Assembly: GCA_964456815.1 (NCBI GenBank)
Contig: CAYWCO010000001.1
Coordinates: forward strand, 1 to 46,977
Direction: 5' to 3'
Origin: an uncultured Dehalococcoidales bacterium
GTDB taxonomy: Bacteria; Chloroflexota; Dehalococcoidia; Dehalococcoidales; BS750m-G39
DNA: 46,977 nt
Shown here: positions 1 to 27,461 of the stretch, in pieces
Position numbering within the stretch: the stretch's first letter is position 1
Layout: each line of letters begins with the position of its first letter
The notes under the pieces: model-generated
The model's database searches: none
What the model was told of the DNA's origin: nothing
What the model saw: only the letters and a program-made list of their open reading frames with translations
Translations under genes and position numbers: made by a program

Positions 1-580
1 TCGGGATGCCCATCCAGTCAGAGAATTCCAGAATCTTCTCAGGCTCATTTTCCATAACCTTATCATAATAGCCTATCGCATCTAGCATAATTGCTCCGCC
101 AGTGTGCTTGGGGAAATTCTCATTGGCCAGACCCTTATCCCAGCCCTGATATACATAATGGCGGTATTTCATCCACCCCGGGGTAAGCCAATAGACATCC
201 TTACCCTCGCTTATTCTCTCCCTCTCCTCCTCGCTGGCCAGCATGTCAATACAGTGAGAGGCTTTTATTCTGGAAATCCTGATTCCAGGTTCCTCTTGTT
301 CCTGAATTATGGTGTCTATCTTTCGATATGGATTATCGGCATTAACGTAGCAGAACTTACCGCCGTAGACCACGATGACGTTAGAAGCGTAGGTCTTGGC
401 TGTACCTAGCTGTTTAATAAGCTGGCTTTCAAGTTTCCGGGGCACTTCATGGCGGCCGGGCTTGGTATAAAGAATTTTCTTGGCATCCAGAAAGCCACTG
501 TTTCTAAGATAGTTCAGTTCCATACTGAGCGTGCCGCAGGCAACAATGGCATAGTCCTGAAACGAGACACGTTTCTCCAT
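1..580 (-). CDS. DUF1638-like protein (3'-partial; C-terminus lies beyond the window start)
   Basis: Absent from the ORF track because it runs off the edge. ATG at 580-578 follows AAAAGGGGGAAAGC. Hand translation gives 193 stop-free codons: MEKRVSFQDYAIVACGTLSMEL...VVYGGKFC...SHCIDML...YWLTPGW. This resembles the DUF1638 pattern. Confidence 0.55.
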   Translation of the reverse strand, partial: MEKRVSFQDYAIVACGTLSMELNYLRNSGFLDAKKILYTKPGRHEVPRKLESQLIKQLGTAKTYASNVIVVYGGKFCYVNADNPYRKIDTIIQEQEEPGIRISRIKASHCIDMLASEEERERISEGKDVYWLTPGWMKYRHYVYQGWDKGLANENFPKHTGGAIMLDAIGYYDKVMENEPEKILEFSDWMGIP

Positions 581-666
581 GCTTTCCCCCTTTTAAGTTA
601 GAAATGCTTCCAGTCAGAGAAAGTAACTCGTGGGACTCCTCGAATCCTTCCGGAGTATAATCTCCC

Positions 667-1203
667 TTACCTGGGCAGCTGCACTAATACCTGGGACAGC
701 TGCTCGTTGGCCTTTTTCAACTCTTGTGCTGCTTGTAATGCGCTATTATAAATTGGATTGCCCTCCAAGTTATTGGATTTCTCCACCCATTTGTTGAATT
801 TCTCGGCATGCTTTTTGTTATGCTCGACCCACGAGGTCAAAAGCACTTTAAGTCTCCCAGTTTCATCAGTCGGGAACCTCTTTAGGATATCCTCAACCAT
901 TGTTCGGATAGTATTCTCAGGCACCGCCCCGAGGATTTCGTCTACCTTTTCACCATCACCAAAGAACATCTGCATGGGTATACTCATAATCTGATATTTC
1001 ACCGCTGTGCGCTGGTTCTCATCCACATTCAGCTTGCAGAACTTGAACCTGCCATCATACTCCTCTGAGAGCTTGTCGTATATAGGTGAAACCATCATAC
1101 AGGGGCCACACCAGGGCGCCCAGAAATCGACCTCTGTGGGAAGGTCTGAGTTCAGGACTTCCTCTTCAAAATTTTGATCCGTAATTTCTGTTACTTTGCT
1201 CAT
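667..1203 (-). CDS. trxA: Thioredoxin, long form (canonical WCGPC domain plus a ~70-aa helical C-terminal extension)
   Basis: FWAPWCGPC active site and a thioredoxin fold over the first ~108 aa. The extra tail reads TDETGRLKVLLTSWVEHNKKHAEKF... Confidence 0.88.
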   Translation of the reverse strand: MSKVTEITDQNFEEEVLNSDLPTEVDFWAPWCGPCMMVSPIYDKLSEEYDGRFKFCKLNVDENQRTAVKYQIMSIPMQMFFGDGEKVDEILGAVPENTIRTMVEDILKRFPTDETGRLKVLLTSWVEHNKKHAEKFNKWVEKSNNLEGNPIYNSALQAAQELKKANEQLSQVLVQLPR

Positions 1204-1253
1204 ACTACCTCCTTCTTGATTGATTGTTAACCTACAACTACATTAGGGACATA

Positions 1254-2174
1254 TCACCCTTGCTCTTGAACATATTTAAAGGCGGACATAGCAGCAGTGA
1301 CACCGTCTCCGACCGCAGCGGCGATCTGGCGAGGTGAGCTCCTACGGATGTCGCCAGCGGCGAAAATTCCAGAAGCTGAGGTCGCCATCGTTTCATCAGT
1401 GACGATATAACCGGCATCGTCCAGCTCAAGAATGTTGAAAAAGCCCCGGCTGTTGGGCATGAGCCCTACAGCAACGAAGACTCCGTTAACTTTCAAGTTA
1501 GACTGCTGGCCTGTTTTCACATGGCGTAGTTTAAGCTCCTCCAGTACTTTATCCCCCGAAACCTCTTCCACCACCGTGTCCCAGATGAACTCCAGCTTGG
1601 GATGGGCAAATGCCCGCTCTTGGAGAGCCCTTCCTGCCCGGAGCTGGTCTCGCCGATGTATTACGTAGACTTTACTGGCATGCTGACTTAGCTCCAGAGC
1701 ATCAGTAATAGCGGTATCACCCCCTCCTACTACCGCTACCTCACGGTTGCGGAAGAAGAAGCCATCACAAGTAGCGCAGTAGGAAACACCGCGACCAGAC
1801 AGCCTTTCCTCGCCCGCAACTTCCAGCTTACGATACTCTGAACCAGCAGCGATGATTACGGCCGAAGCTTCAAGGTTACCCTCAGTGGTTGAAATACTAT
1901 AATAGGGCTGCTCTTGAGAAATGCCTATGACCTCAGTGGTTGCTACCTCCAGACCGTATCTGACTGCCTGCCGATGCATGAGCGAACCCAGCTCGGAGCC
2001 AGCTATGCCCTCAGGAAAACCAGGGTAATTCTCCACCAGCGCAGCATTGACCATCTGGCCCCCTAACATCCCTCGCTCCAGCAGCAAGCTTCTGAGTCCT
2101 GCCCGTGAGGTGTAAAGACCAGCAGTAAGTCCAGCAGGGCCACCCCCAATAATGATTACGTCATACCTAGCCAT
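1254..2174 (-). CDS. trxB: Thioredoxin-disulfide reductase (low-Mr NTR)
   Basis: GGGPAG FAD motif, CATC redox dithiol (SYCATCDG), GGGDTA and HRRDQLR NADPH motif; 306 aa. Confidence 0.92.
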   Translation of the reverse strand: MARYDVIIIGGGPAGLTAGLYTSRAGLRSLLLERGMLGGQMVNAALVENYPGFPEGIAGSELGSLMHRQAVRYGLEVATTEVIGISQEQPYYSISTTEGNLEASAVIIAAGSEYRKLEVAGEERLSGRGVSYCATCDGFFFRNREVAVVGGGDTAITDALELSQHASKVYVIHRRDQLRAGRALQERAFAHPKLEFIWDTVVEEVSGDKVLEELKLRHVKTGQQSNLKVNGVFVAVGLMPNSRGFFNILELDDAGYIVTDETMATSASGIFAAGDIRRSSPRQIAAAVGDGVTAAMSAFKYVQEQG

Positions 2175-2200
2175 TGTCTGCCCCCGTTCTTAAAGTGGGA

Positions 2201-2449
2201 TTACTTGATGTCTTCCAGAGGCCTCTTGAATGGATCAATGGCACTGGGTATTTTGGCAGGTGCCTCAAATTGCCCATCGGGTTTCACCCCAGAAGTGCCA
2301 GGGTTACTAACCCCGGTTGCTTCCCCTGGCTTCTCGATATGCCCCCGATATTTCTTACTGAAACACAAGTAGTAGTGTCTGCCGCGGTAAAGGGCACATT
2401 CCCTGCATAATTTCCCAGTGAAGGGACATATCATCTCTTCCTTAGCCAC
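2201..2449 (-). CDS. Small Cys-rich protein of unknown family (82 aa) with C-terminal tail PSAIDPFKRPLEDIK
   Basis: GTG start 8 nt after GGAGG. N-terminal C-x6-C-x2-C-x12-C (ICPFTGKLCRECALYRGRHYYLC). Sits tightly inside the operon, 15 nt after the methyltransferase and 26 nt before trxB. Confidence 0.6.
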   Translation of the reverse strand: MAKEEMICPFTGKLCRECALYRGRHYYLCFSKKYRGHIEKPGEATGVSNPGTSGVKPDGQFEAPAKIPSAIDPFKRPLEDIK

Positions 2450-2464
2450 GATCTATACCTCCAG

Positions 2465-3178
2465 TCAAGTACTAACTACCCCTCGTTTGCCTGCCACTAT
2501 TATCGTAAATCCAGCATCGGGGAAATAGCCTTCCCTTGGCTCTTCCACGTGCTGCACCTTGCCCGGCTGTTGAAAAAGCGTGGAAACAACCCTTTCCGTA
2601 GAAAAGCCCGCCTGTTCCAGCAACTTCAGTGCCTCATCATATGTGTAGAAGGTAACAAATTTATAAAAACGGTGCCCCTGCGCCTTCTGCGTCTGATAAA
2701 ACTGACCCCAGGGACTTTCCTTTAAGACCAGCCCCAGCACTATCTTGCCGCCGGGTATCAGGGTGCGGTTGGCTTCCTTTAAAACGTCCAGAGGAGAGTC
2801 CAGGAAACACAGGGTAACAATCAAAAAGACCGTACCGAATAATTCTTCATCAAAGAACTCCTGCTCTCCCCTTCCTAGAAAGGCACTTATCCCTCTCTTC
2901 CTTGCCATCTCAACGAGCTTGATTGAAGGGTCAATACCAGTCTCTATTCCCAGAGCTTGGGCAAAGCGGCCGCTACCGACACCTATCTCAAGCCATGCCT
3001 TTGGCAGGGACGGCGGGAGTGACTTAAACGCCTGTGCCTCAATTAAGAAGATAAGGCTTCCCTCTCTATCAAACCAGGCATCATATTCTGTAGCCAGGTC
3101 ATCGAAGGGAGACCGCTCAGCGTTCTTCTGCCGTCTCCCCGTATTTGATTTTCGAGTCCTGGAATTGGTTGGCGGCAT
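2465..3178 (-). CDS. Class I SAM-dependent methyltransferase
   Basis: LEIGVGSGRF motif I and a Methyltransf_11-like layout. I prefer the ATG at 3178 (AAGGAGGAAAT upstream) over the track start at 3220, which would overlap cooT. Confidence 0.8.
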   Translation of the reverse strand: MPPTNSRTRKSNTGRRQKNAERSPFDDLATEYDAWFDREGSLIFLIEAQAFKSLPPSLPKAWLEIGVGSGRFAQALGIETGIDPSIKLVEMARKRGISAFLGRGEQEFFDEELFGTVFLIVTLCFLDSPLDVLKEANRTLIPGGKIVLGLVLKESPWGQFYQTQKAQGHRFYKFVTFYTYDEALKLLEQAGFSTERVVSTLFQQPGKVQHVEEPREGYFPDAGFTIIVAGKRGVVST

Positions 3179-3191
3179 ATTTCCTCCTTGG

Positions 3192-3395
3192 TCAAGCTTT
3201 GTCAGCTTTGACACTCTCATTGAGCAGTATCTTCGAGGTCGAGAAATCTATTTCGACCACTCTGCCCGATATAACCCTTTCCTCGCCAAACAGTGTCTCC
3301 AGTTCCACCCGGTCTTCATGCAGTCGCATATGAGCGATGTCCTGAGCAAGCGGCTTTTTGCCCCACTTATTTAGATAAGCCTTAGCAAGACACAT
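3192..3395 (-). CDS. cooT: CooT-family nickel-binding protein
   Basis: 67 aa starting MC-AK with Cys2. The pattern MCxAKxxL...TLFxEE...G...ID...I.L.E matches my recollection of Rhodospirillum CooT. It lies directly downstream of cooC. Confidence 0.7.
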   Translation of the reverse strand: MCLAKAYLNKWGKKPLAQDIAHMRLHEDRVELETLFGEERVISGRVVEIDFSTSKILLNESVKADKA

Positions 3396-3428
3396 ATTCG
3401 CACCTCCTCTTGAGCGGCTAGGCCCACG

Positions 3429-4208
3429 TTATCCCGGTGCTGGCAGACCTGCCTTTGCAAGGATGCGGTCCAAGGCATTCTTGATCTCCCGCACCGCTAC
3501 CCCCTTCACCGGGGTTCTACCGTCTAGACTTGAACTGAAAATATCGGCGTCAAAGTATATACACCCGACCACCCCAATGTGCCGCTCCTGTAATTCCATT
3601 TTCAGTCTGGTGGCTATCTCTTCTGATGGCACCTTATTCAGGATAGCCCAGACATTCTTGATGCCAATTCCTGAAGCCAAGTCGTGTATCTTCTGACCTA
3701 CATTTACTGATTCCAGAGGAGGCTCTACCACAATCAGTACACTGTCAATGCTCGTCTCAACGCCCCGGCCGAAATGCTCTACCCCCGCTTCCATATCCAC
3801 GATAGCCAGCTCGCCTTTCGCCAAAGCGAGCTTCTTTAAGAACTCGCGACTTAATACCCCCATGGGGCAGGCACAGCCTTCCAGGGACTGGAGTATCTTG
3901 CCGATGCCGACCAGCGTAAGACCATCTTTCTGAACCAAATGCTGAGGTGGTAAATCCTCCAACGCGATGCGGCTTTCGGCAAGAACGCTTGGCTGCCCCA
4001 TCTTTCGCTGCAGACTCTTCTTGCCACCGACAAGCTCCATGAGAGGCACAGGCGGGTAGTCAAAGCCCAGCATGCTGAAAAGTCCCGAATTGGACTCATC
4101 CGAGTCCACCACCAGCACACGGTAACCCCTGAGTCGTGCTTCGTTTGCCAGCAGGGCAACTACAGTACTTTTGCCACTTCCCCCCTTACCGCAGACCGAT
4201 ATCTTCAT
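3429..4208 (-). CDS. cooC: CooC-type P-loop NTPase (Ni-insertion accessory protein family)
   Basis: Deviant Walker A CGKGGSGKST, a CxC metal motif (EGCACPMG) and a MinD/ParA-like fold length of 259 aa. Confidence 0.82.
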   Translation of the reverse strand: MKISVCGKGGSGKSTVVALLANEARLRGYRVLVVDSDESNSGLFSMLGFDYPPVPLMELVGGKKSLQRKMGQPSVLAESRIALEDLPPQHLVQKDGLTLVGIGKILQSLEGCACPMGVLSREFLKKLALAKGELAIVDMEAGVEHFGRGVETSIDSVLIVVEPPLESVNVGQKIHDLASGIGIKNVWAILNKVPSEEIATRLKMELQERHIGVVGCIYFDADIFSSSLDGRTPVKGVAVREIKNALDRILAKAGLPAPG

Positions 4209-4228
4209 CGTTTGTCACCCTTCCCTGT

Positions 4229-4441
4229 TTACATTCTTACTATCTCGATTGCCTTCAGAGGGCAGGCACGGACGCAGTCTCCACAACCCTGGCAGACAGA
4301 CGGGTCTGTCATTGGTATATCGTAGGGTGTCTCCTGCTTGAGCAGCTTGTGAGAACACGCCAGGGCAGCAGCACAAATGCCGCTGTCACACTTTTCTGGA
4401 TGGCATTTCTTATAATCTACTAATGCCATCTTGCTTGGCAT
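4229..4441 (-). CDS. Small 2x[4Fe-4S] ferredoxin with an RLI-like first cluster motif
   Basis: KKCHPEKCDSGICAAALAC plus canonical CQGCGDCVRACP. The start shares 1 nt with the stop of the upstream thioredoxin-like gene (TGATG). Confidence 0.8.
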   Translation of the reverse strand: MPSKMALVDYKKCHPEKCDSGICAAALACSHKLLKQETPYDIPMTDPSVCQGCGDCVRACPLKAIEIVRM

Positions 4442-4935
4442 CAGCCTTTCTTTTCAGCCTCCCTTGCCTTCTCTAGCTCCTCCTCTAGCTCCTCCAGCTC
4501 CTGCACCATCGACGGGTGTACTGAGTGAGCTGGCCATCGAGCCTTGAGGTCAGCGATTTTGTCCTCAGTCTCTTTTATCCTATCTGTGCCCGGCTCTTTA
4601 GCTATTACATGCCCCAGCAAGCGCCTCAATGACTTATGGTCCTGAAAACCGAGCAGTTTCCTTACCGGCTGAGAGTCTTTAAAAAGTAATATGGTTGGCA
4701 CAACCATGATGCGATACCGGGCTGACGTATCGGGACTTCCCTCTATATCCACCCTCACAAACTTCACGTTGCCTTCATATTCTTTTACCAATTCATCGGC
4801 AAAAAGACATGTAGGATAACATGTGTGGCACCATCGCGCAGTGAAGCACGTGAACACTGGGAGTTCACATTCCAGCACTTCTTTGTCGAAATTTCGGTCG
4901 GTAATGTCTATCATCTCTGCAGTCGGCTGGGTCAC
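4441..4935 (-). CDS. Thioredoxin-like protein, atypical WCHTC site plus a ~60-aa acidic coiled C-terminal extension
   Basis: FTARWCHTCYPTC and a thioredoxin fold. The tail reads DLKARWPAHSVHPSMVQELEELEEELEKAREAEKKG. It overlaps the Fur gene stop by 4 nt. Confidence 0.8.
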   Translation of the reverse strand: MTQPTAEMIDITDRNFDKEVLECELPVFTCFTARWCHTCYPTCLFADELVKEYEGNVKFVRVDIEGSPDTSARYRIMVVPTILLFKDSQPVRKLLGFQDHKSLRRLLGHVIAKEPGTDRIKETEDKIADLKARWPAHSVHPSMVQELEELEEELEKAREAEKKG

Positions 4936-5363
4936 TGCGTCTTCCCCTGCTCCTCACACTCCGGACAGTAACCCTCAAGGTATAACTCGGCTTTAGTCAC
5001 CCTGAAGCCATGCTCTCGCCTTACTGCCTTGATCAACTTCTGGAAGTAGGGGTTCTGAAATTCGATGACTTTGCCGCATCCCTGGCAGACTAGGTGCTGA
5101 TGCTCAGGCGATTGCTTTATCTCGTAGTAGCAACGAACCTTGCCCAGCCTCATCTCATCAACCAGCCCCAGTTCCTTGAAGAGGTTAAGTGTGCGGTATA
5201 CCGTCGCTGGACTTATAGACTCATCCCGGGCACTAGCACGATGGTACAGCTCTTTAGCGTCAATATGCCCTTCAGCATCGCGCAATAGCTCTAGAAGTAG
5301 GCACCGCTGAGCTGTCATTGAATGACCGTGAATTTCTCTGTCTTTTTTGAGATTGAGACTCAT
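4932..5363 (-). CDS. Fur-family metalloregulator (Fur/PerR/Nur type not resolvable)
   Basis: Winged-helix N-domain (ATVYRTLNLF), HQHLVCQGCG and CPEC structural-Zn CxxC pairs. ATG at 5363 is preferred over the track's TTG at 5369. Confidence 0.85.
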   Translation of the reverse strand: MSLNLKKDREIHGHSMTAQRCLLLELLRDAEGHIDAKELYHRASARDESISPATVYRTLNLFKELGLVDEMRLGKVRCYYEIKQSPEHQHLVCQGCGKVIEFQNPYFQKLIKAVRREHGFRVTKAELYLEGYCPECEEQGKTQ

Positions 5364-5370
5364 TATCAAT
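5352..5370 (-). promoter_or_regulatory. Candidate Fur-family operator (9-1-9 imperfect palindrome) overlapping the Fur start codon
   Basis: Minus strand reads ATTGATAATGAGTCTCAAT. 7 of 9 arm positions are self-complementary, and it contains the GATAATGA half of the classical Fur box. Confidence 0.4.
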
Positions 5371-5376
5371 TTGCAT

Positions 5377-5404
5377 TTTATACGACTTCGACCTCTTTTG
5401 TCAA
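5377..5404 (-). promoter_or_regulatory. Sigma-70-like promoter of the Fur-led operon
   Basis: Minus strand reads TTGACA (5404-5399), 16 nt, TATAAA (5382-5377). The predicted TSS is only a few nt before the ATG at 5363. Confidence 0.5.
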
Positions 5405-5772
5405 GAAGGGGCTAATGTCTCCGTTAGCGGTTCACTGAAGCCAGACGAAGTTACCCATAGAGTTAACCATGCCTTGAAGGTGGTAGGAGCATCGCAGAAG
5501 TTGAGGAGTTACCTTAGGTGGTATTAAAGCCTCACGCATCACAAAAGGGCGGATTGTTGGCTATCAGTTGCACACCCTAGTCCTTACTGCTACAATTACC
5601 TCTGCTGAGAGTTAGGTGGTTAGATAGTAAGGCTAAAAGCTAGTTCGAAAGTTCTGTCTATCGTCCAGTACCGCCCACCATAAAGCTAGAGGGTCTGTGC
5701 CAGACCTCCTGGTTAAGGATTTATCCTCACCCAGCGTACCGACTGCAGAAGTCCCAAAACTTTAGAATTATA

Positions 5773-5801
5773 TTTACAAACCAATAAAGAAACGTTAGTA
5801 T
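5773..5801 (+). promoter_or_regulatory. Promoter of the marR-MATE unit
   Basis: TTTACA (5773-5778), 17 nt, TAGTAT (5796-5801). Confidence 0.5.
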
Positions 5802-5814
5802 AGATATAGTTAAG

Positions 5815-5849
5815 AATGCATACTATATATATCATAAACTATATGCATT
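5815..5849. promoter_or_regulatory. Inverted repeat AATGCATA-N19-TATGCATT, candidate MarR operator
   Basis: Perfect 8-bp arms at 5815-5822 and 5842-5849, just downstream of the predicted -10 and upstream of the marR RBS. Confidence 0.4.
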
Positions 5850-5882
5850 AGATGACCCTTCATCTACCAAGGAGTTAAAAAG

Positions 5883-6338
5883 ATGCAAAATGAGCTCTTG
5901 GATAGAATCACTGCAGACTTATTATCCGTTCCACCTCTTATCTTTAGAGGAACACGCAGAAAACTGCTTAAGACAGCGCTTGCCAATATTGACCCAGATA
6001 TTACACCACTCCATTTTGAGATTATGAAGCTGCTGCATGAAGCAGGAACACTCCACCCCGCCGAAATCGGGGAAAGGCTACTGGTAGCCAGAGCCCAGAT
6101 GACCCATCTGATAGATAAGCTGGTGGACTTGGGTATAGTCGAAAGGCAGGCGAATACTGCCGACAGAAGAATGACAAATATTCTGCTCACCACGGAAGGC
6201 GAAGCCTTTTTCGAAGAACACGATAGCAACATAAAGAATGCGATAAAAGAAACTCTGTCCTACCTCACCGATGAAGAACTGGAGGGTTTATCAGATTCAC
6301 TGCGAAAACTGCGAGATATATTAGCGAAATTGCAGTAA
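5883..6338 (+). CDS. MarR-family transcriptional regulator
   Basis: Winged HTH (LHPAEIGERLLVARAQMTHLIDKLVDLGIVERQANTADRR); RBS GGAG 8 nt upstream. Confidence 0.85.
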   Translation: MQNELLDRITADLLSVPPLIFRGTRRKLLKTALANIDPDITPLHFEIMKLLHEAGTLHPAEIGERLLVARAQMTHLIDKLVDLGIVERQANTADRRMTNILLTTEGEAFFEEHDSNIKNAIKETLSYLTDEELEGLSDSLRKLRDILAKLQ

Positions 6339-6393
6339 CTGAAATCCTGTGTCCACTGTTACAGTATAACTTAGAAGGATATGTAATTAGCCA

Positions 6394-7833
6394 GTGAGTA
6401 ATCAGAATCAAAGCGTACTTGACGATGACCGAATCGGCCGGTTGCTGCTGAAACTATCCCTTCCCGCGTTTCTCGGCATGTTTGTCATGACATTATACAA
6501 CGTGGTAGACACAATTTTTATTGGTCACTACGTTGGTCACCTCGGTATTGCCGGGCTTTCCATAGTTTTCCCCATCCAAATGCTGTCAATAGGAATTGGG
6601 GAAATGACGGGCATGGGCGGCGCATCATTGGTTTCAAGGTTAATCGGAGCCGGTAACATCCCCAGGGCAGAGCGCGCTATCGGTAACGCTATAACTACTA
6701 CTATTGTGCTATCAGCCATACTGATGACCGCCGGCTTAGCCAATCCAGACTTCTGGCTCAGGCTTATGGGCTCGTCGGAGACTATCCTCCCCTATGCCAG
6801 AGACTACATGACAATTATTCTCATCGGCATGTTTTTCATGATCTTCGCCATGGCATTAAATAGCCTAATAAGAGCCGAGGGAAATGCCCGCATACCGATG
6901 ATCGGAATGATAATAGGCGCTGTATTGAATATTATCCTTGATGCCATATTCATCATACCGCTGGGCATGGGGATAAAGGGAGCAGCGCTGGCTACCGTGA
7001 TAGCACAGCTAATTTCTGCCTTATACTTGATGAGCTATTATTTTGCTGGAAAGAGCTTCCTTAAAATTCATTCCAGAAACTTAATCGTTGAATGGAATAT
7101 TCTGAAAGCAATCCTTGCTATAGGAGTCGCCTCGTTTGCTAGGCTGCTGGCTGCGAGCCTATCCGCCGTTTTTGTGAATAGAATGCTTGTTGCCTATGGT
7201 GGTGACTATGCCGTGTCTGCCTTTGGCATCATTAACCGTATAATGATGTTTGCCATTATGCCCGGCATCGTTATCGGTGCTGGGCTTCAGCCGATACTCG
7301 GCTTCAATTACGGGGCAAAGCGCTATGACAGTGCGCTAAAGGCAATAAAGTTAGCCATTGCTGCGGCAACCGCGTGTTGCGTTGTAGTATTTATAGTTCT
7401 CTATTTCGCCCCGGAACCGTTTATTCGCCTTTTCACTACTGATAACGAGTTGATTGCCCTTAGCTCTTATGCTGCAAAGCGAATCTTCCTGGCTCTGTAT
7501 CTGATAGGCTTTATGATGGTCGGTTCACTGGTCTTCCAGTCAATCGGGAAGGCTACCCAGTCATTCGTCACTGCTATATCAAGGCCCTTTCTGTTCCTGA
7601 TTCCCCTGATATTCATACTGCCACAATTCTTACAGCTAGACGGCGTGTGGCTGGCATTTCCAATAGCCGATGCACTTGCATTCCTACTAACCCTCGCTCT
7701 ACTTCTCCCTCAGATAAGGGAACTCCGGAGTATGGACCTGTCAGCGAAAAGGGGGGGGCTACTACTCAGACCTGAGCACTGCGGTGAGGTTAAGTCGGGA
7801 GGTGTTACAAGCGGGATAAAATCCGAGGAATAA
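6394..7833 (+). CDS. MATE-family efflux transporter
   Basis: 12-TM profile and a typical N-terminus (LLKLSLPAFLGMFVMTLYNVVDTIFIGH). The last ~30 codons overlap an antisense gene relic, so the true C-terminus is uncertain. Confidence 0.88.
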   Translation: MSNQNQSVLDDDRIGRLLLKLSLPAFLGMFVMTLYNVVDTIFIGHYVGHLGIAGLSIVFPIQMLSIGIGEMTGMGGASLVSRLIGAGNIPRAERAIGNAITTTIVLSAILMTAGLANPDFWLRLMGSSETILPYARDYMTIILIGMFFMIFAMALNSLIRAEGNARIPMIGMIIGAVLNIILDAIFIIPLGMGIKGAALATVIAQLISALYLMSYYFAGKSFLKIHSRNLIVEWNILKAILAIGVASFARLLAASLSAVFVNRMLVAYGGDYAVSAFGIINRIMMFAIMPGIVIGAGLQPILGFNYGAKRYDSALKAIKLAIAAATACCVVVFIVLYFAPEPFIRLFTTDNELIALSSYAAKRIFLALYLIGFMMVGSLVFQSIGKATQSFVTAISRPFLFLIPLIFILPQFLQLDGVWLAFPIADALAFLLTLALLLPQIRELRSMDLSAKRGGLLLRPEHCGEVKSGGVTSGIKSEE

Positions 7834-7875
7834 GCCAATGCCAACCAGTACAGAAACGGCAAGCGGAACTATGTC
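7762..7875 (-). pseudogene. Relic of the last TM helix and C-terminus of a MacB/FtsX-type permease
   Basis: DIVPLAVSVLVGIGLFLGFYPACNTSRLNLTAVLRSE* matches the intact permease C-terminus (39437..40738) [37 protein letters not shown] at 25/37 residues. No homologous sequence lies upstream of it. Confidence 0.65.
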
Positions 7876-9148
7876 AGGGTCCGGTGACGAAGGAAAGAGG
7901 CGTTTCTCACCGCAGCCAGCGGGTCTCCTGTTGGGCAAGTTTGGCTTACTCATCCTGCTGGCAGGCTTTCTGCTGGCGGCGTGGTACGGTCAGACAGTCA
8001 TTGTTGTCCTGCTTGGTCTGGCGCTAACGGCTGCTGGCTTGGCTAAGCTGTGGAGCCGGTTTTCGCTGGTGGGCGTAAGCTGTGAGCGCCTGTTGAGTCA
8101 GCAGCGTGTCTTCCCCGGCGAACACATTGAGTTAAGGCTGCAGCTCATCAACCGAAAGCTCCTGCCGCTTCCCTGGTTCCAAATGGATGACGAGATACCA
8201 CTCAAAATGTCCTCAGATATTCCACTTGCAGCAAATAATAGACCCGGATTCGGTTTCCTGAGCAAATCGGCGGCACTGCTCTGGTACACAAAGGTAAGCT
8301 GGAAAGAGCGCCTCTGTTGCCATAGGCGCGGCTATTACCAGTTGGGGCCGATAACGGTGACTGCCGGTGATATCTTCGGCTTTTATCCCCGCTCCATCAC
8401 CGAACCACTGATAGACCATGTTATTGTTTATCCAAAAATCTTTCCCATCACGCATCTGGGCATACCATCGTTGTATCCCATCGGCGAAACGACTGCTGAG
8501 CGGCGCATTTTTGAGGACCCCATCCGCGTCATCGGGGTACGCGACTACATTCCCCGTGACAGCCGCCGACATATTCACTGGAAGGCAACCGCCCGGCGCC
8601 AAGAACTACAGGTAAAGGTCTTTGAGCCCACCACAACGTTGAAGGTGGCAATTTTTCTAGCCGTTGATAGCTTCAGGGCAAGGCATGGCGAGGTCTATAC
8701 CGAGGAAGATTTCGAGCTAGGTATCAGTACTGCTGCCTCCATCGCCAGCTATCTTACTGAGCACCGCAGCGCGGTAGGATTGTTTGCCAACTCGTGTCTG
8801 GCTGATTCCGGTCAGCCAGCTACGCTGTTACCCGCTAGCGGCACCAGTCACCTGGTTGAGATTCTGGAAGCCCTCGCCAAGGTTACCCCCTCATCCAGCA
8901 GTCCCTTTGAGAAGTTCCTGCAAGCTGAGCGGACGGCCTTACCCTGGGGAACCACCCTTGTTTTCATACTCTGCAAGCCTTCGGAGTTACTAACGGAGCT
9001 ACTGCTCAGCCTGAAAGAGAGCGGACACAGGATGCTCGTTCTCCAGGTTGGTGATGCAGAGGAAAGTGAACCTCCGGGCACAATTGCCTGGCACCGAATC
9101 AGGCAGCCTGGAGATTTTACGATAGCAGGCACTGGGGGAACAAGATGA
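7838..9148 (+). CDS. DUF58-domain protein (MoxR-associated, vWA-like)
   Basis: Hallmark GVRDYIPRDSRRHIHWKATARR motif and two N-terminal TM helices. The first ~12 codons overlap the relic, so the start may be the M at 7871. Confidence 0.8.
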   Translation: MPTSTETASGTMSGSGDEGKRRFSPQPAGLLLGKFGLLILLAGFLLAAWYGQTVIVVLLGLALTAAGLAKLWSRFSLVGVSCERLLSQQRVFPGEHIELRLQLINRKLLPLPWFQMDDEIPLKMSSDIPLAANNRPGFGFLSKSAALLWYTKVSWKERLCCHRRGYYQLGPITVTAGDIFGFYPRSITEPLIDHVIVYPKIFPITHLGIPSLYPIGETTAERRIFEDPIRVIGVRDYIPRDSRRHIHWKATARRQELQVKVFEPTTTLKVAIFLAVDSFRARHGEVYTEEDFELGISTAASIASYLTEHRSAVGLFANSCLADSGQPATLLPASGTSHLVEILEALAKVTPSSSSPFEKFLQAERTALPWGTTLVFILCKPSELLTELLLSLKESGHRMLVLQVGDAEESEPPGTIAWHRIRQPGDFTIAGTGGTR

Positions 9149-10572
9149 AGCTGGACTGGCGACAAGGCATTTTATATGTCGCCACAATAGGCATGGAGGG
9201 CTGCTGGCTGTATGCCCTGCTCGCCCTGCTAAACAGGCAGGCGGCTGATGGTCGCCTCTCCGTCGCAGGAATCATGGCGCTATATCCTGCCGCTTTCATC
9301 ATTAACGCTTTGCTTGCACGGCTGAGGTGGCCCAGAGCCTGCATTCTCATTGTGAGCTGGCTGGGGTGGGTGATGGGCATGCTGCTCATTGTAAAGGTGC
9401 AACTATTCGCTGACCTGCCGCTCCTGGACTCGGCATGGCTCCTGTCAATACCACAATCAATAGCCCAAGTGATATACACCTTCAGACCGGAGCTATTGAT
9501 TCTTCTGAGCACCGGCATTATTTGGTGGCTAAGCTGGCGGCTAGCCTCCCGCGTTGCCAACTTCCCATCAATGGTCAGTGAATTCCAGTTCGGGCTTGTT
9601 ATGCTTGTCTTGGTCTTCTTCGCCGCCTCCCAGTTAAAAGCCGGTCTCAATAACCCCGTTCCCATAGCCCTAAGCTTTTTCCTATTTGCCCTGCTTGGAA
9701 TATCGGTGGCGCATGCCCTGGAAGGCACAAGCTGGCTCTCCGGGCTCTACCAGGGACACTGGTCAGGACTCTTGCTGGTCAGTATCAGCCTGATTCTTCT
9801 TCTGGGTTTACTTGTCAGCGCGGTGGTAACACCTGACCTACTCCAGGTAATCTGGGGAGGTATCAAATGGGCTTGGGGGCTAATCTGGGGACTAATTATG
9901 AAAGTGCTTCTCTTTTTCGCCAGCCTTTTCCCTGAGCCAGAACCAGGTGAACTACCGTCTATGCCGTCTATGCCAGCAGCGGAACCTTCCGAGGAGTTTC
10001 AGCTGTGGACTATGCCGGAGTGGCTGCGGGGCGGTCTCCGCCTTAGCTGGAGCATCCTGGTGCTGGGACTTATTCTCCTCGCCCTGTGGCGTATCTCCTC
10101 TGGCATATTTCGCTGGATGCGCCGCAAGCTGTCCAGCATGGTAGGTGCCGAGTTTGAGCCAATGCCAGGCGCATTCAAAGCTGATTTTCTGAGCCTCTTA
10201 AAGCGCGCTCTTCTCAGATTGCTCAGACTGAAGCTGCCCTTCCGGTTAAGAGGGAAACAGGAGATATTGCCACCTGAGGTAGCCTCTGTACGCCAGACCT
10301 ACCGCCAGCTTCTGCGCTGGGCAGCCGCCGGTGGCTATCCCCGGCAGCTCTCGCAGACTCCGCACGAGTACTGCTACACTCTGACAGGCCTTCTGCCAGA
10401 AGCCAGTAAAGATCTAAATTTCGTTACGCAACAATATGTCAGGGCACGCTATGGAGCTTTGCTATCGGCGGGAGACGAACTAGACGAGCTGAGCCAGGCG
10501 TGGCACAGAGTCAAGCAAACCCGCCTGAAGAGAACAGCTACTGAGCTTGCTCATGATAAGGAGGTAAGTTAA
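9145..10572 (+). CDS. Polytopic membrane protein with a C-terminal DUF4129-like domain
   Basis: About 7 TM segments, then SQTPHEYCYTLTGLLPEASKDLNFVTQQYVRARYG. ATGA start/stop overlap with the DUF58 gene. I saw no transglutaminase Cys-His-Asp core. Confidence 0.7.
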   Translation: MKLDWRQGILYVATIGMEGCWLYALLALLNRQAADGRLSVAGIMALYPAAFIINALLARLRWPRACILIVSWLGWVMGMLLIVKVQLFADLPLLDSAWLLSIPQSIAQVIYTFRPELLILLSTGIIWWLSWRLASRVANFPSMVSEFQFGLVMLVLVFFAASQLKAGLNNPVPIALSFFLFALLGISVAHALEGTSWLSGLYQGHWSGLLLVSISLILLLGLLVSAVVTPDLLQVIWGGIKWAWGLIWGLIMKVLLFFASLFPEPEPGELPSMPSMPAAEPSEEFQLWTMPEWLRGGLRLSWSILVLGLILLALWRISSGIFRWMRRKLSSMVGAEFEPMPGAFKADFLSLLKRALLRLLRLKLPFRLRGKQEILPPEVASVRQTYRQLLRWAAAGGYPRQLSQTPHEYCYTLTGLLPEASKDLNFVTQQYVRARYGALLSAGDELDELSQAWHRVKQTRLKRTATELAHDKEVS

Positions 10573-10573
10573 A

Positions 10574-11554
10574 GTGAAAAAAGCAACGTCAGAAACCAGC
10601 CCGGATATATCGCGCATAAAGCAGGCAGCCGATAAATTAGTAAATAATGTCACCAAGGTAATTGTCGGTAAGAAAGAGACCATTGAACTGGTCTTGGTAG
10701 CCCTGCTGTGCGAGGGGCATGTATTAATTGAAGACATGCCCGGCATCGGGAAAACAATGCTGGCTAAAGCGGTAGCTAAATCGCTGGGCTGCAGTTTCAA
10801 AAGAATACAAGCAACCCCGGACCTGCTTCCATCAGATGTAACGGGCATCCACTATTTCAACCAGAAGACCTCAGAATTTGAATTTCGGCCGGGCCCGATT
10901 ATGGCTAACATAGTGCTGGTCGATGAAATAAATCGAGCTACTCCGAGAACGCAGTCGTGCTTGCTGGAGTGCATGCAGGAGCAGCAGGTCACGGTTGACT
11001 TAGAGACAATACCTTTGCCCCGTCCATTCCTGATTATTGCTACACAGAATCCTGTTGAGTTGGAGGGTACTTTCCCATTGCCCGAGGCACAGCTGGACCG
11101 CTTTTTGCTTAGGGTTGGGCTGGGCTATCCCACCAAGGATGAGGAAGAGGTAATCTTGTCTAGATTCCAACACTCAAATCCCCTGGACAACCTAACCAGC
11201 GTAATTAAGGCAGCTGAACTGCTGGAGCTTCAGAAATTATGCCGTCACGTATACGTCGACGACTCAATTCGTGACTACGTTACTGCCATTACCAGGGCTA
11301 CGCGGTGTCACGAAAACATCAAGCTGGGCGCTAGCCCACGTGCCTCACTGGGCCTCCACCTTGCGTCCCAAGCTCTGGCGGCCATTCAAGGACACGGCTA
11401 CGTGATACCGGATGATGTAAAGTGCCTGACCGTACCTGCCCTAGCCCATCGCCTTATTGCCAAAACAGAGGCGCGATTAAGGGGACAGTCATTGGAGGCT
11501 ATAGTAAGTGAAATAGTGTCTACCGTGCCTGTGCCAGTAGAAGACCAGTCGTAA
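10574..11554 (+). CDS. MoxR-family AAA+ ATPase
   Basis: Walker A MPGIGKT, Walker B VLVDEINRA, an AAA_3-like layout, and GTG after AAGGAGG. Confidence 0.9.
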   Translation: MKKATSETSPDISRIKQAADKLVNNVTKVIVGKKETIELVLVALLCEGHVLIEDMPGIGKTMLAKAVAKSLGCSFKRIQATPDLLPSDVTGIHYFNQKTSEFEFRPGPIMANIVLVDEINRATPRTQSCLLECMQEQQVTVDLETIPLPRPFLIIATQNPVELEGTFPLPEAQLDRFLLRVGLGYPTKDEEEVILSRFQHSNPLDNLTSVIKAAELLELQKLCRHVYVDDSIRDYVTAITRATRCHENIKLGASPRASLGLHLASQALAAIQGHGYVIPDDVKCLTVPALAHRLIAKTEARLRGQSLEAIVSEIVSTVPVPVEDQS

Positions 11555-11638: not shown

Positions 11639-13201
11639 GTGACCATTTCGGAGATGGTATCCCGAAATAGGCGAATGTATCCCGATGATACCGCGCTTAT
11701 TGAACTAAAACCAAGCCAGGGACTGAGAAAAGAAATCACCTGGAAGCAGTTTGACGAAAGGGTAAACCGGCTGGCCAACGCCCTTATCGAGCGGGGGGTT
11801 AAAAAAGGCGACCGGGTTATCCACTGGATGCTCAACTCCACTAGCTGGCTTGAGGCCTATTTCGGCATTATCAGGACGGGGGCATGGGCAGTGCCGCTTA
11901 ACTTCAGGTTTAGCAGCCAGGATTTTAAGTACTGTGCCGATATCGCTGAGGCTAAGGTGATGATTCTTGGCGAGCAGTTTATAGAGAGAGTAGAAGCTGC
12001 CCGTTCCCAACTACCCGCAATTAAGAGCTATATCCTCGTCGGGCAACCTTTGCCCGAATATATGGAGGATTTTGAAAAGGTAATAGACAGCTCTTCCCCC
12101 CAGCCAGTAGAGGTGGATTTGAGCGATGAGGATGAGTGCGGGCTGTACTTCACCTCGGGTACCACCGGGGCGCCCAAGCCGATACTGCTTACCCACAAGA
12201 ACATGGAATGTGCCGCCATAACCGAGAACCGCCACCACTATCAAACCCGTGAGGATAATTTTATTCTTATACCGCCCCTGTACCATACCGGAGCCAAGAT
12301 GCACTGGTTTGGCAGTCTGATTGTAGGCGGGCGCGCTACCCTGCTCACTGAAAGCAGCCCCCAGTATATTTTTGAAGCCATTCATAAAGAGAGAGGGACG
12401 ATAGTATGGCTGCTGGTGCCCTGGGCTCAGGATATTCTGATTGCCCTGGACAAGGGAGAGCTGAAGAAAGAGGACTACGACCTGAGCTGCTGGCGGCTTA
12501 TGCATATGGGGGCGCAACCTATACCGGTCAGCCTGATTAGGCATTGGAAGCAATACTTCCCCGATATGCAGTACGATACCAGCTACGGGCTAAGCGAATC
12601 CACCGGACCAGGATGCGTCAACCTTGGCATACAGAACCAGCATAAGCTGGAAGCTACGGGCAAGCCCGGCTTTAACTGGAAGACCCGTATTGTCAATGAT
12701 AAGGATGAGGATGTTGCTCCAGGAAAGGTCGGCGAGTTGTTAGTCAGGGGTAATGGGGTGATGAAGGAATACTACAAAAACCCGGAGAAGACGGCGGAAA
12801 CCTTAAAGGATGGCTGGCTACATACCGGCGATATGGCTAGAGAGGATGAGGAGGGGTTTATCTACATTGTTGATAGAAAAAAGGATGTGGTCATCACCGG
12901 GGGTGAGAATATCTTTCCTGTAGAGGTAGAAGAAGCCCTGCGGCGAAATTCCAAGATTTATGATGCCGCCGTAATTGGTATCCCCGATGAGAGGCTGGGG
13001 GAGATAGCTCTAGCCGTAATCGACCCCAAGCCGGGGGAGGCACTGACTGAAGAAGAGATAAATCAGTTCTGCGAACAGAATCTGCCTAGGTATAAGAGAC
13101 CAAGGCGCATCGTATTTGATAAGGTGCCACGAAATCCCACCGGCAAGATAGAAAAACCAAAACTAAGGCAAAAACACGCTGCACTTAGGAGGCCAGGTTG
13201 A
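11639..13201 (+). CDS. AMP-forming acyl-CoA synthetase/ligase (substrate unknown)
   Basis: YFTSGTTGAPKP AMP-binding motif, YHTGD and GELLVRG; 520 aa. Confidence 0.9.
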   Translation: MTISEMVSRNRRMYPDDTALIELKPSQGLRKEITWKQFDERVNRLANALIERGVKKGDRVIHWMLNSTSWLEAYFGIIRTGAWAVPLNFRFSSQDFKYCADIAEAKVMILGEQFIERVEAARSQLPAIKSYILVGQPLPEYMEDFEKVIDSSSPQPVEVDLSDEDECGLYFTSGTTGAPKPILLTHKNMECAAITENRHHYQTREDNFILIPPLYHTGAKMHWFGSLIVGGRATLLTESSPQYIFEAIHKERGTIVWLLVPWAQDILIALDKGELKKEDYDLSCWRLMHMGAQPIPVSLIRHWKQYFPDMQYDTSYGLSESTGPGCVNLGIQNQHKLEATGKPGFNWKTRIVNDKDEDVAPGKVGELLVRGNGVMKEYYKNPEKTAETLKDGWLHTGDMAREDEEGFIYIVDRKKDVVITGGENIFPVEVEEALRRNSKIYDAAVIGIPDERLGEIALAVIDPKPGEALTEEEINQFCEQNLPRYKRPRRIVFDKVPRNPTGKIEKPKLRQKHAALRRPG

Positions 13202-15096: not shown

Positions 15097-15101
15097 AGGG
15101 A

Positions 15102-15713
15102 ATGGTAAAGGAATTCAATATACTAATCACCGGTGTCGGCGGGCAGGGGGTGATTTTGATGTCGGAGCTCCTGGGAAAGGCAGCCGTCGCCGATGGACTG
15201 AGGATTAGAGGCTCTGAGATATTGGGGATGGCAGTCAGGGGCGGCTCGGTAACCAGTATCATCAGAATTGGAGACGAGGTCTATGGCCCCCTCCTCCCGG
15301 CGGGAAAGTGTAACGCCCTGGTCGGCATGGAGCCGGCGGAGGCACTGAGAAATATTGTCTATCTAGCAAAGTCCAGCCTGGTCATAATCAATACGGCGGC
15401 AACTATTCCCTTCACCGTCTCCGTGGGTGAAAGTAAATACCCCAGCCTGGAGGAAATCCTGGGACAGCTGGGCAAAGCCTCAGGCAGGATAATCCAGCTA
15501 GATGCGGCTCAACTGGCTCAAGAAGCGGGAAGCCTGCTGGCCACCAACATTGTGATGCTGGGGGCATTATTCGGCAGCGGGCAACTTCCCATAAAAATAG
15601 CCACCATAAAGGAAGCCATCCAGGCGCGTTTCCCGGCTAAAGTAGCTCCGCTTAATATCAAAACCTTTGACCTGGGCTACCAGACGTGCCGAGAGGCATT
15701 AAGCCCGGCTTAA
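15102..15713 (+). CDS. iorB: Indolepyruvate:ferredoxin oxidoreductase beta subunit
   Basis: POR gamma-like domain (ITGVGGQGV); starts 5 nt after iorA. Confidence 0.85.
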   Translation: MVKEFNILITGVGGQGVILMSELLGKAAVADGLRIRGSEILGMAVRGGSVTSIIRIGDEVYGPLLPAGKCNALVGMEPAEALRNIVYLAKSSLVIINTAATIPFTVSVGESKYPSLEEILGQLGKASGRIIQLDAAQLAQEAGSLLATNIVMLGALFGSGQLPIKIATIKEAIQARFPAKVAPLNIKTFDLGYQTCREALSPA

Positions 15714-16918: not shown

Positions 16919-16966
16919 CTCTTTGCCCCTTTTGCCAACATTAAGCAGAGCCGCAGGTTCGTATTT

Positions 16967-27431: not shown

Positions 27432-27461
27432 CTTCCTTAAGCAATCCCCCGATTATTTTTG

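Follow-up and report, generated by a model that had tools for sequence, protein, structure and literature searches.

CooC and CooT are established accessory factors of the nickel-dependent CO dehydrogenase (Ni-CODH), and they are enriched in those Ni-CODH directons that belong to the Wood-Ljungdahl group (PMC6344411). So far, the two proteins have been understood only as helpers of this enzyme, and in few model organisms. The closest described gene arrangements are the cooFSCTJ/acs clusters of R. rubrum and C. hydrogenoformans, with AcsF serving acetyl-CoA synthase (ACS). Here, we analyze an operon at the beginning of a 46,977-nucleotide stretch of DNA from an uncultured Dehalococcoidales bacterium (contig CAYWCO010000001.1; the whole stretch is called the window below), in which a CooC-like ATPase and CooT are encoded behind a Fur-family gene. 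With the coo clusters this locus shares a CooC-type Cys-x-Cys ATPase and a CooT with Cys2, and the two genes are likewise adjacent and co-oriented. In contrast to the coo clusters, no cooS, cooF, or acs gene lies nearby, either in the window or at the approximately 95 related loci examined; the ATPase, judged by its motifs, falls into a separate subfamily marked by DSDESN and EGCACP; and the genes stand among thioredoxins, a ferredoxin, and a methyltransferase, with a Fur-family regulator in the place of CooA or RcoM.

The E. coli suf operon and the thioredoxin operons controlled by Fur or PerR resemble the locus in that a Fur box overlies the promoter of genes for metallocluster handling and thiol reduction, and in a maturation or repair function that is (here, would be) switched on when metal is scarce or damaged. 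However, no SufBCD/SufS/IscU scaffold is encoded here, its place being taken by the CooC-like ATPase, CooT, an RLI-type ferredoxin, and a TM1293-type methyltransferase, and the operon, apparently leaderless, begins with the gene for its regulator. The ORP/MrpORP system (orp of Desulfovibrio vulgaris) has in common with it P-loop SIMIBI ATPases and RLI-type Fe-S domains as well as NifX-like and NifU proteins, and an ORP-like cluster is even contiguous with the module at three related loci (L011, L016, and L181; numbers preceded by L designate related loci throughout). The window operon, however, has no adjoining ORP-like genes, its ATPase is CooC-like rather than of the Mrp/NBP35 type, and its ferredoxin is encoded as a polypeptide of its own. 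MrpORP acts as an Fe-S carrier (PMC6345978), and orp operons are regulated by sigma-54 and OrpR (PMC8359166), whereas regulation here appears to be of the Fur type. Finally, DUF1638 proteins co-occur with RamA-like activators (PMC5764234). A DUF1638 gene stands at the 3' end of our operon, and at L099 and L142 a RACo gene lies between the genes for a thioredoxin with a DUF8180 extension (Trx-DUF8180) and an FeS protein on one side and DUF1638 on the other; unlike in the RACo/RamA systems, no RACo or RamA gene is visible in the window, whose edge cuts DUF1638, and DUF1638 is optional in the module.

While the component families are known, their assembly (a CooC-like subfamily, CooT, and thioredoxins under a leaderless Fur gene of their own, independent of CODH and spread across phyla) appears to be undescribed. 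Our literature search found no description of the arrangement, "Coot" matching mostly the crystallography program. It is quite possible that, behind the CooC/CooT label, there is a broader and as yet unrecognized function in metallocenter maintenance, and we consider the chance of this substantial. As a general model, we tentatively propose that the operon encodes a Fur-repressed, metal-responsive, ATP- and reductant-driven module for the insertion or repair of metallocenters, and we give this model slightly less than an even chance of being right.

Operon structure and conservation

The operon forms one conserved unit that starts with a Fur-family gene. In the list of open reading frames (ORFs) of the window, it consists of ten consecutive, co-directional ORFs on the minus strand, spanning positions 1 to 5363. 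From the promoter downstream, its features are as follows (aa, amino acids; nt, nucleotides).

5377 to 5404, minus strand: predicted sigma-70-type promoter (-35 TTGACA at 5404 to 5399, 16-nt spacer, -10 TATAAA at 5382 to 5377)
5348 to 5370, minus strand: putative Fur-box-like operator, TGATAATG-AGTCT-CAATCTCA, an 8-5-8 inverted repeat
4932 to 5363, minus strand: Fur-family repressor, 143 aa (PF01475, 7.8e-32, 110 bits against a cutoff of 23)
4441 to 4935, minus strand: atypical thioredoxin-fold protein with a WCHTC motif (PF00085, 6e-17)
4229 to 4441, minus strand: ferredoxin, 70 aa, with two Cys4 motifs (Fer4 families)
3429 to 4208, minus strand: CooC-like SIMIBI ATPase, 259 aa (best PDB match C. 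hydrogenoformans CooC1, 3kje, 1.3e-21)
3192 to 3395, minus strand: CooT-family protein, 67 aa (PF10133, 53.2 bits against a cutoff of 27)
2465 to 3220, minus strand: class I S-adenosylmethionine (SAM) methyltransferase (Methyltransf_11, 3.9e-12; TM1293/1VLM, 4.8e-38)
2201 to 2449, minus strand: Cys-rich protein, 82 aa, GTG start (no Pfam or NCBIfam match)
1254 to 2174, minus strand: thioredoxin-disulfide reductase TrxB (TIGR01292, 369.3 bits against 343.45; Pyr_redox_2, 1e-51)
667 to 1203, minus strand: canonical WCGPC thioredoxin (TIGR01068, 111.2 bits against 96.8)
1 to 580, minus strand: N-terminal 193 aa of a DUF1638 protein (PF07796, 1e-19, 71.4 bits against 27, residues 40 to 193)

The close packing on the minus strand that had been described in the original prediction was confirmed, with gaps between -29 and +86 nt: Fur to WCHTC thioredoxin, -4; WCHTC thioredoxin to ferredoxin, -1; ferredoxin to CooC, 20; CooC to CooT, 33; CooT to methyltransferase, -29; methyltransferase to Cys-rich protein, 15; Cys-rich protein to TrxB, 26; TrxB to WCGPC thioredoxin, 50; and WCGPC thioredoxin to DUF1638, 86 nt. 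The overlap of CooT and the methyltransferase turns into a gap of +13 nt with a methyltransferase start at ATG 3178, which, having a GGAGG Shine-Dalgarno (SD) sequence 5' of it, is probably the true start (237 aa). A GGAGG-like SD lies 5 to 10 nt 5' of every gene of the operon but the first, fur. The window edge falls inside the DUF1638 gene, and the 3' end of the unit may lie beyond it.

The family labels assigned from the nucleotide sequence were each upheld by a profile or PDB test, including those of CooT and CooC: CooT matched PF10133, and the best PDB match of CooC was CooC1. The Pfam match of CooC was to the generic CbiA family only. In NCBIfam, neither CooC nor CooT matched a specifically named family, and the same was true of the methyltransferase and the Cys-rich protein.

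The CooC-like protein, which carries the name "CO dehydrogenase maturation factor" at JGI, aligns with CooC1 over residues 1 to 220, that is, over nearly its full length. It has the deviant Walker A motif GKGGSGKST (G7-K8-GGSGK13-S-T) with the signature Lys8, and its C112-A-C114 aligns with C-Y-C of CooC1 and is invariant in the subfamily alignment. The marks by which we place it in a distinct subfamily, namely, DSDESN, EGCACP, and EAGxEHFGRG in full-length members, are not those of CooC1 at the aligned positions. When 1.8 billion representatives were searched exhaustively with HMMER, only 107 representatives (50% identity) were returned at E < 1e-30, and more than 120 distinct 90%-identity clusters are at least 80% identical to the window protein, indicating that its clade is abundant in metagenomes. 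The only PDB matches of CooT are three CooT structures, all aligned over the full length, and its N terminus, MCLAKAYL, is invariant in 7 orthologs, with the Cys2 that follows the initial Met as the predicted nickel ligand.

The closest relatives of the operon come from JGI metagenome contigs (L009/L010, L011/L012, L093, and L095) and from two NCBI metagenome-assembled genomes (MAGs) (L013 and L016, labeled Dehalococcoidales and Dehalococcoidia); all look-ups covered about 10 kb on either side. In the window, L009, L011, L013, L016, L093, and L095, and likewise in L176 and L181, the order is Fur, Trx(WCH[TS]C), a 50-aa peptide, ferredoxin, CooC-like ATPase, CooT, methyltransferase, and Cys-rich protein. 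The flanks differ in each genome (MarR/MatE in the window; elsewhere molybdopterin oxidoreductases, NuoEF/MTHFR, fatty acid genes, or an ORP-like cluster), suggesting that the block moves as a unit. It is followed by a variable tail that draws on genes for a SufT-like DUF59 protein, a YruB-type glutaredoxin, GroES, TrxB, Trx-DUF8180, one or two CoADR/NADH oxidase-type flavoproteins, PCC, DUF1638, a nitroreductase, a UbiE-type methyltransferase, and AF_2141. Whether CooC/CooT and thioredoxin are linked elsewhere had been put forward as a check; their linkage proved to be widespread, and the order is kept in at least 7 Dehalococcoidia genomes.

The wider EGCACP subfamily spans identities of 47% to 78% and phyla including Chloroflexota, Thermodesulfobacteriota, and others. 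Members that are 47% to 55% identical to the window CooC-like protein occur in the following contexts.

L097 and L159: Fur, NuoE, NuoF, NuoG-like, Trx, Trx, 50-aa peptide, ferredoxin, CooC, CooT; in L097 followed by a second Fur and an ORP-like cluster
L099 and L142: Fur, CooC, CooT, a 122-aa protein, Trx(DUF8180), FeS(PF04060), RACo, DUF1638; L099 also has an ORP-like cluster upstream of Fur and AF_2141 after DUF1638
L100 (a Thermodesulfobacteriota MAG): glutaredoxin/GroES divergent from Fur, CooC, CooT; similar in L129, L131, L136, L138, and L143, the longer contigs going on with Trx(DUF8180)-FeS and ArsP_2
L101: flavoprotein disulfide reductase, CooC, CooT, TrxR-like protein
L098: Nik/Opp-type ABC transporter, FmdE, DUF3842, CooT, CooC

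Altogether, the subfamily was observed beside CooT in a set of roughly 90 loci from several phyla. Among 80 further metagenomic loci, CooT lies no more than 1.5 kb downstream of the CooC-like gene in at least 39 of the 63 that have downstream sequence, and genes for Fur (at least 18), a small ferredoxin (at least 19), Trx-DUF8180 and DUF1638 (at least 15 each), FeS(PF04060) and NifU (at least 11 each), and ORP-type (CbiA-Fer4) ATPases, NifX-like proteins, and Mrp (at least 6 to 8 each) are found nearby. The most constant partners of the CooC-like gene are those for thiol redox proteins, present at 11 of the 16 loci with both flanks. What remains constant throughout is the CooC-like ATPase with CooT, a source of reductant, and a thioredoxin and/or small ferredoxin, very often with a Fur-family gene ahead; electron input is always present but interchangeable, being provided by TrxB, by CoADR/Nox-type reductases, or by NuoE-NuoF-NuoG-like proteins. 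In L011, L016, and L181, the module is immediately preceded by a co-directional ORP/Mrp/NifU cluster, whereas no CbiA-Fer4, NifX-like ORP, Mrp, DUF134, or DUF5320 gene adjoins the operon in the window. Near the CooC-like/CooT pair of L106 (positions 1192 to 3477), we also observed a 761-aa protein in which a NifS-like class V aminotransferase is fused to an AIRS/AIRS_C domain of the SelD/HypE type; stand-alone relatives of AIRS size occur at two other loci.

Promoter, operator, and regulator

The promoter and the Fur-box-like palindrome that had been predicted at the head of the operon are conserved throughout the 7 orthologous clusters, where the -35 hexamer is invariant and a -10-like element and the palindrome lie at the same spacing. 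Within the first 6 kb, no sequence matches a promoter better than TTGACA-16-TATAAA (11 of 12 positions); an alternative reading combines an 18-nt spacer with TAAAAT. The fur ATG (5363) lies 13 nt past the -10 element and has no SD, so that the fur mRNA, with a leader of about 4 to 8 nt, would be effectively leaderless. The operator sequence (5370 to 5348, ATTGATAATGAGTCTCAATCTCA), which can also be read as the 19-bp ATTGATAATGAGTCTCAAT, spans both the predicted transcription start and this ATG. It holds a perfect Fur half-site, TGATAAT, has 2 mismatches to the classical 7-1-7 Fur consensus TGATAATnATTATCA, and is the sole copy of the palindrome in the window. In the two most divergent of the seven clusters, the outermost pair is changed from A..T to G..C on both sides, the right-hand change being a synonymous substitution in fur codon 4. 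A related TGAGAATGAGAAACATTCGCA is found at the fur start codon in 12 of 16 distant loci (those with a Fur gene and enough upstream sequence), where the layout is TTGACA, about 17 nt, the -10 element, and a Fur box at the start codon. Such conservation among near and distant relatives makes a good comparative case for a Fur-type operator with autoregulation.

Rfam searches of positions 1 to 6500 at a permissive threshold returned nothing credible, and the 478 untranslated nt ahead of the promoter yielded no NiCo or other riboswitch. We note that this stretch of about 480 nt (5405 to 5882), which separates the promoter of the Fur operon from divergent MarR-MatE genes (5883 to 7833), has neither an annotated gene nor an Rfam match, and that the 45 nt directly upstream of the -35 element are nearly identical in L013.

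The regulator is most similar to C. jejuni Fur (4ets/6d57, 3e-25, 92 bits) among PDB entries, followed by Magnetospirillum, E. coli, and other Fur proteins; PerR (2fe3), Zur, and Nur score lower, at 72, 64, and 60 bits. Its Cys4 zinc site, C93-x2-C96 and C133-x2-C136, aligns with the CxxC pairs of C. jejuni Fur and is conserved in orthologs except for L016, which has Ser at the C96 position. The regulatory site derived from the same alignment (H33, E81, H88, H90, and E101) is invariant in near and distant orthologs. The regulatory ligands of the reference Fur and PerR proteins are those given in the literature: PerR has Asp at the two acidic regulatory positions, and its box is TTATAAT. Given its Glu ligands and the TGATAAT half-site, we read the regulator as a metal-sensing, Fur-type repressor, and the ligand set and type of box make Fe2+ the most likely corepressor, nickel being a further candidate.

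These features also bear on a different explanation, in which an oxidant-sensing, PerR-like member of the Fur family would control a regulon for defense against thiol or oxidative stress, with CooC/CooT re-metallating O2-damaged centers as a side task. PerR-controlled trxB or trx operons do occur in Firmicutes, and both the constancy of thiol redox partners described above and the additions seen in relatives (YruB-type glutaredoxin, GroES, SufT-like DUF59, CoADR/Nox-type flavoproteins, and nitroreductase) would fit such a regulon. Glu81 and Glu101, however, stand where PerR has its Asp pair, and the half-site is TGATAAT instead of TTATAAT; we reject an identification as PerR on both counts, and the peroxide-responsive option raised in the original prediction is disfavored with it. 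Furthermore, no peroxidase, rubrerythrin, superoxide reductase, or catalase was found in any version of the cluster that was looked up. We therefore regard a stress defense regulon as unlikely.

Redox partners, methyltransferase, Cys-rich protein, and DUF1638

The WCHTC protein scores 70.7 bits against TIGR01068, below the cutoff of 96.8, and this score together with its motif WCHTCYPTC characterizes it as a protein of the thioredoxin fold that is not a canonical thioredoxin. The motif W-C-H-[TS]-C-Y-P-T-C is kept in 7 of 7 orthologs. Since the PDB alignment places a Cys at the buried Asp26 of classical thioredoxin, four Cys residues would cluster around the active site, an arrangement that is suggestive of metal or cluster binding. 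The 50-aa helical peptide KARWPAHSVHPSMVQELEELEEEL is fused to the C terminus of this protein in the window (4441 to 4600) and in L093, is encoded by a separate ORF between the WCHTC thioredoxin and ferredoxin genes in L009, L011, L013, and L095, and also accompanies the distant module versions L097, L141, and L159. The ferredoxin has its best NCBIfam match in the N-terminal Fe-S domain of RLI/ABCE1, with the same Cys pattern; all 8 of its Cys residues (C13, C18, C23, and C29; C50, C53, C56, and C60) are invariant in orthologs. TrxB carries the CATC redox motif (SYCATCDG) and an NADPH-type HRRDQLR motif, and the WCGPC thioredoxin has a helical C-terminal extension of about 70 aa, its orthologs being labeled PF26551/DUF8180.

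The methyltransferase is related to T. maritima TM1293 (1VLM), a methyltransferase homolog that is itself uncharacterized, and has a weak NCBIfam match to the DVU_1556 family (33 bits against a cutoff of 155). A SAM methyltransferase beside a complete thioredoxin/thioredoxin reductase system could in principle belong to a metal(loid) detoxification operon, wherein As, Se, Te, or Hg would be methylated with thioredoxin as the reductant under a metal-sensing repressor, and some relatives do add a second, UbiE/ArsM-like methyltransferase and an ArsP_2 permease. The regulator, however, is of the Fur type and not ArsR or MerR, and the methyltransferase is found in only 9 of the 80 CooC-like loci and is absent from most of the distant CooC-CooT-Trx cores, which makes a detoxification operon very improbable. 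An ArsM-type role of the methyltransferase was rejected because the protein has a single Cys, belongs to the TM1293 family, and shows no match to ArsM.

The 82-aa Cys-rich protein, called novel in the original prediction, belongs to a conserved family of 226 homolog clusters, none of which carries a Pfam domain. It is no signature of the module. Its N-terminal 36 aa are rich in invariant residues and basic (MAKEDMICPFxGKLCxECxLYRGRHYYLCFxKKYRG, with C8, C15, C18, C29, and H25) and are followed by a variable linker and a C-terminal SAIDPF motif. An AlphaFold2 model based on a 25-sequence alignment was of low confidence (pLDDT 51, pTM 0.24). The gene neighborhood check seeded on this protein, which had been suggested earlier, mostly pointed to other gene clusters: of 80 species-level loci, only 2 include the operon, the rest being Mo-hydroxylase or ORP-like contexts. 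In at least 45 of the 80 loci, the gene heads Mo-hydroxylase operons of the order Cys-rich protein, CoxG-like SRPBCC protein, FAD subunit, 2Fe2S subunit, Mo subunit, and a 72-aa zinc-finger-like protein, found in Dehalococcoidales, Anaerolineales, Desulfobacterota, Syntrophorhabdus, and Aminicenantes. In about 10 loci from Dehalococcoidales genomes it ends ORP-like clusters, and within the present module it is confined to a narrow clade of Dehalococcoidia. We also observed that GlcDEF-like flavoproteins or a BcrAD-type activator ATPase often precede the Mo-hydroxylase operons (loci L013 to L092). In a separate set of proteins of about 200 aa (L041, 9603 to 10193; L063, 2827 to 3456; and further cases in L064, L066, L068, and L072), the N-terminal motif is fused to a response regulator receiver domain, which hints at a signaling or nucleic acid-binding role of the motif. 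Considering these contexts and fusions, the Cys-rich protein seems to be a promiscuous small metal-binding or regulatory adaptor and not a marker of the module. Its synteny also bears on the history of the block: L014 and L017 have the order ORP-like cluster, NifU, radical SAM, Cys-rich protein, and L016 has the same order with the stretch from Fur to the methyltransferase standing before the Cys-rich gene. The Fur-to-methyltransferase block may thus have originated here by insertion into an older ORP-like/Cys arrangement.

The DUF1638 gene has its own SD behind the 86-nt gap. It is present downstream in 5 of 6 other orthologous clusters (as a short fragment only in L011) and is missing from the L095 version and several distant loci. 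DUF1638 has been genetically tied to RamA-type reactivation of corrinoid (B12) proteins (PMC5764234 and PMC12478193), and this opens the way for another hypothesis, that of a corrinoid (cobalt) maintenance module in which the CooC-like ATPase, CooT, the ferredoxin, the thioredoxins, and the methyltransferase would work with DUF1638, and in relatives with RACo, to re-reduce and re-methylate, or re-metallate, inactivated corrinoid proteins without involving nickel. The corrinoid/iron-sulfur protein CFeSP, corrinoid methyltransferases, and dehalogenases would be candidate clients. The position of DUF1638 after the operon here and in most relatives, the RACo-DUF1638 strings of L099 and L142, and weak matches of the relatives' downstream genes to BluB and CpaM speak for it. 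On the other hand, these matches fall far below the cutoffs (81 against 150 bits for BluB and 65 against 180 bits for CpaM), no gene for a corrinoid-binding protein lies in the cluster, DUF1638 is dispensable at the loci just named while CooT is nearly constant, and the CooC/CooT homologs with solved structures are nickel proteins. We consider a corrinoid module of this kind improbable.

Clients and proposed mechanism

In line with the original prediction, no CODH or ACS gene was found among the window ORFs (all those of at least 490 aa and most of the smaller ones were annotated), and this result extends to the approximately 95 related neighborhoods, where the looked-up loci were judged by their Pfam labels and the metagenomic set by spot annotation of large unlabeled ORFs that recur in it. 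These latter turned out to be dehydrogenases, transporters, the NifS-AIRS fusion, and the like. The association with cooS or acsB by which CooC is defined genomically is thus absent from the window and the related loci.

Under the insertion/repair model, the clients would be encoded elsewhere, and we think that Wood-Ljungdahl enzymes (CODH/ACS) are the most likely ones. MTHFR is an enzyme of the methyl branch of the Wood-Ljungdahl pathway; MTHFR and DUF5981 genes are neighbors of the module in L095 and L113, while in L147 only DUF5981 is. The recurrence of these genes, RACo, and the FeS(PF04060) protein beside the module argues for such clients, as do the enrichment of CooC/CooT in Wood-Ljungdahl-type CODH directons (PMC6344411) and the presence, both in the window and on related contigs, of genes that fit an anaerobic lifestyle (those for aldehyde:ferredoxin oxidoreductase, 2-oxoacid:ferredoxin oxidoreductase, and acyl-CoA ligases). 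A link to nickel is provided by L098, where a Nik/Opp-type transporter lies directly upstream of the CooT/CooC string.

Several further observations concern the remainder of the window. At 23938 to 29042, minus strand, it encodes an ABC transporter of the Nik/Opp/Dpp type, made up of an SBP_bac_5 binding protein, two permeases, and a double ATPase fused into one protein with oligo_HPY, which could be a nickel importer, as the L098 transporter is of the same build. MobB, for molybdopterin-guanine dinucleotide synthesis, is encoded at 33134 to 33778, 28 kb from the operon; in L011, L097, and L181, MobB ends the adjacent ORP-like cluster, lying directly upstream of Fur in L011 and L181. Upstream of the operon (7838 to 11554, plus strand) is a DUF58-DUF4129-MoxR (AAA_3) cluster that is not kept near the module elsewhere. 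A run of genes for anaerobic acid and aromatic metabolism (11639 to 18817) comprises an AMP-dependent ligase, a two-subunit indolepyruvate-type 2-oxoacid ferredoxin oxidoreductase, a family III CoA-transferase, and an aldehyde:ferredoxin oxidoreductase, and resembles what has been described for subsurface Dehalococcoidia.

Considering these data, we propose the following sequence of events for the module. With its corepressor metal available, a dimer of the Fur-like protein would occupy the operator and keep the operon off; a shortage of metal, or oxidation of the sensor, would relieve repression. Electrons from NADPH would then pass through TrxB to the WCGPC thioredoxin-DUF8180, which may keep three proteins in the reduced state: CooT at its Cys2, the CooC-like ATPase at the metal-binding C112-x-C114 of its dimer interface, and the WCHTC protein with its four Cys residues, while the RLI-type 2x[4Fe-4S] ferredoxin would supply low-potential electrons. 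CooT and the CooC-like ATPase would pass nickel, or a Ni/Fe-S fragment, to the clients encoded elsewhere, and DUF1638, with RACo in relatives, may serve the reductive reactivation of a partner corrinoid protein. The transfer of nickel to CODH/ACS is less certain than the regulatory and operon structure. Of the original interpretation of the locus as thiol-redox-coupled maturation or repair of a Ni/Fe-S center, the core fits the recurrent partners (Fe-S assembly proteins, TrxR/NuoEF-type electron input, and RACo/DUF1638), while the peroxide-responsive regulon offered as an alternative is disfavored.

There are still several points that weigh against this model. The client is purely inferred, as no CODH, ACS, or other Ni-enzyme gene lies in the window or among the examined neighbors of the related loci. 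With an identity to CooC1 of only about 30%, the EGCACP subfamily could handle Fe-S, Co, or Zn instead of Ni, and the metal sensed by the regulator is not readable from sequence. Its third (S3) site is degenerate, with E87, Q89, Q108, and H118 in place of His, Asp, Glu, and His and with the last position varying among orthologs. The model gives no step to the methyltransferase or to the Cys-rich protein, the latter mostly accompanying Mo-hydroxylase operons. Cotranscription of the ten genes is inferred from spacing and synteny, and the 86-nt gap 5' of DUF1638 could house a separate promoter. Finally, the related sequences are from metagenomes and MAGs only, many on short contigs, and their neighbors were labeled by phmmer with a home-made panel built from Pfam-annotated loci, so that the co-occurrence counts are lower bounds.

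There is also a broader possibility, in which the CooC-like ATPase, CooT, and Trx-DUF8180 under a dedicated leaderless Fur repressor would form an unrecognized, cross-phylum system of metallocenter traffic or repair in anaerobes that is not concerned with CODH maturation but is general, iron or nickel responsive, and driven by reductant and ATP, serving several Ni/Fe-S and perhaps corrinoid or Mo enzymes. This is a possibility that we take seriously but consider doubtful. If it is true, thousands of annotations as "CO dehydrogenase maturation factor" would be misassigned.

In conclusion, a distinct CooC-like/CooT pair is tied to thioredoxins, a ferredoxin, and a Fur-type sensor in Dehalococcoidia that are abundant in sediments; reduced versions of this arrangement occur in further anaerobic phyla. 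The module offers testable partners for three orphan families, namely, the TM1293 methyltransferase, DUF8180, and the 82-aa Cys-rich protein. Should the proposed insertion/repair module prove true, a common automatic annotation would be corrected, a new Fur-family regulon with a clear operator would be added, and there would be a handle on how strict anaerobes, when metal is scarce or conditions are transiently oxidizing, maintain the Ni/Fe-S (and corrinoid) enzymes with which they fix carbon.

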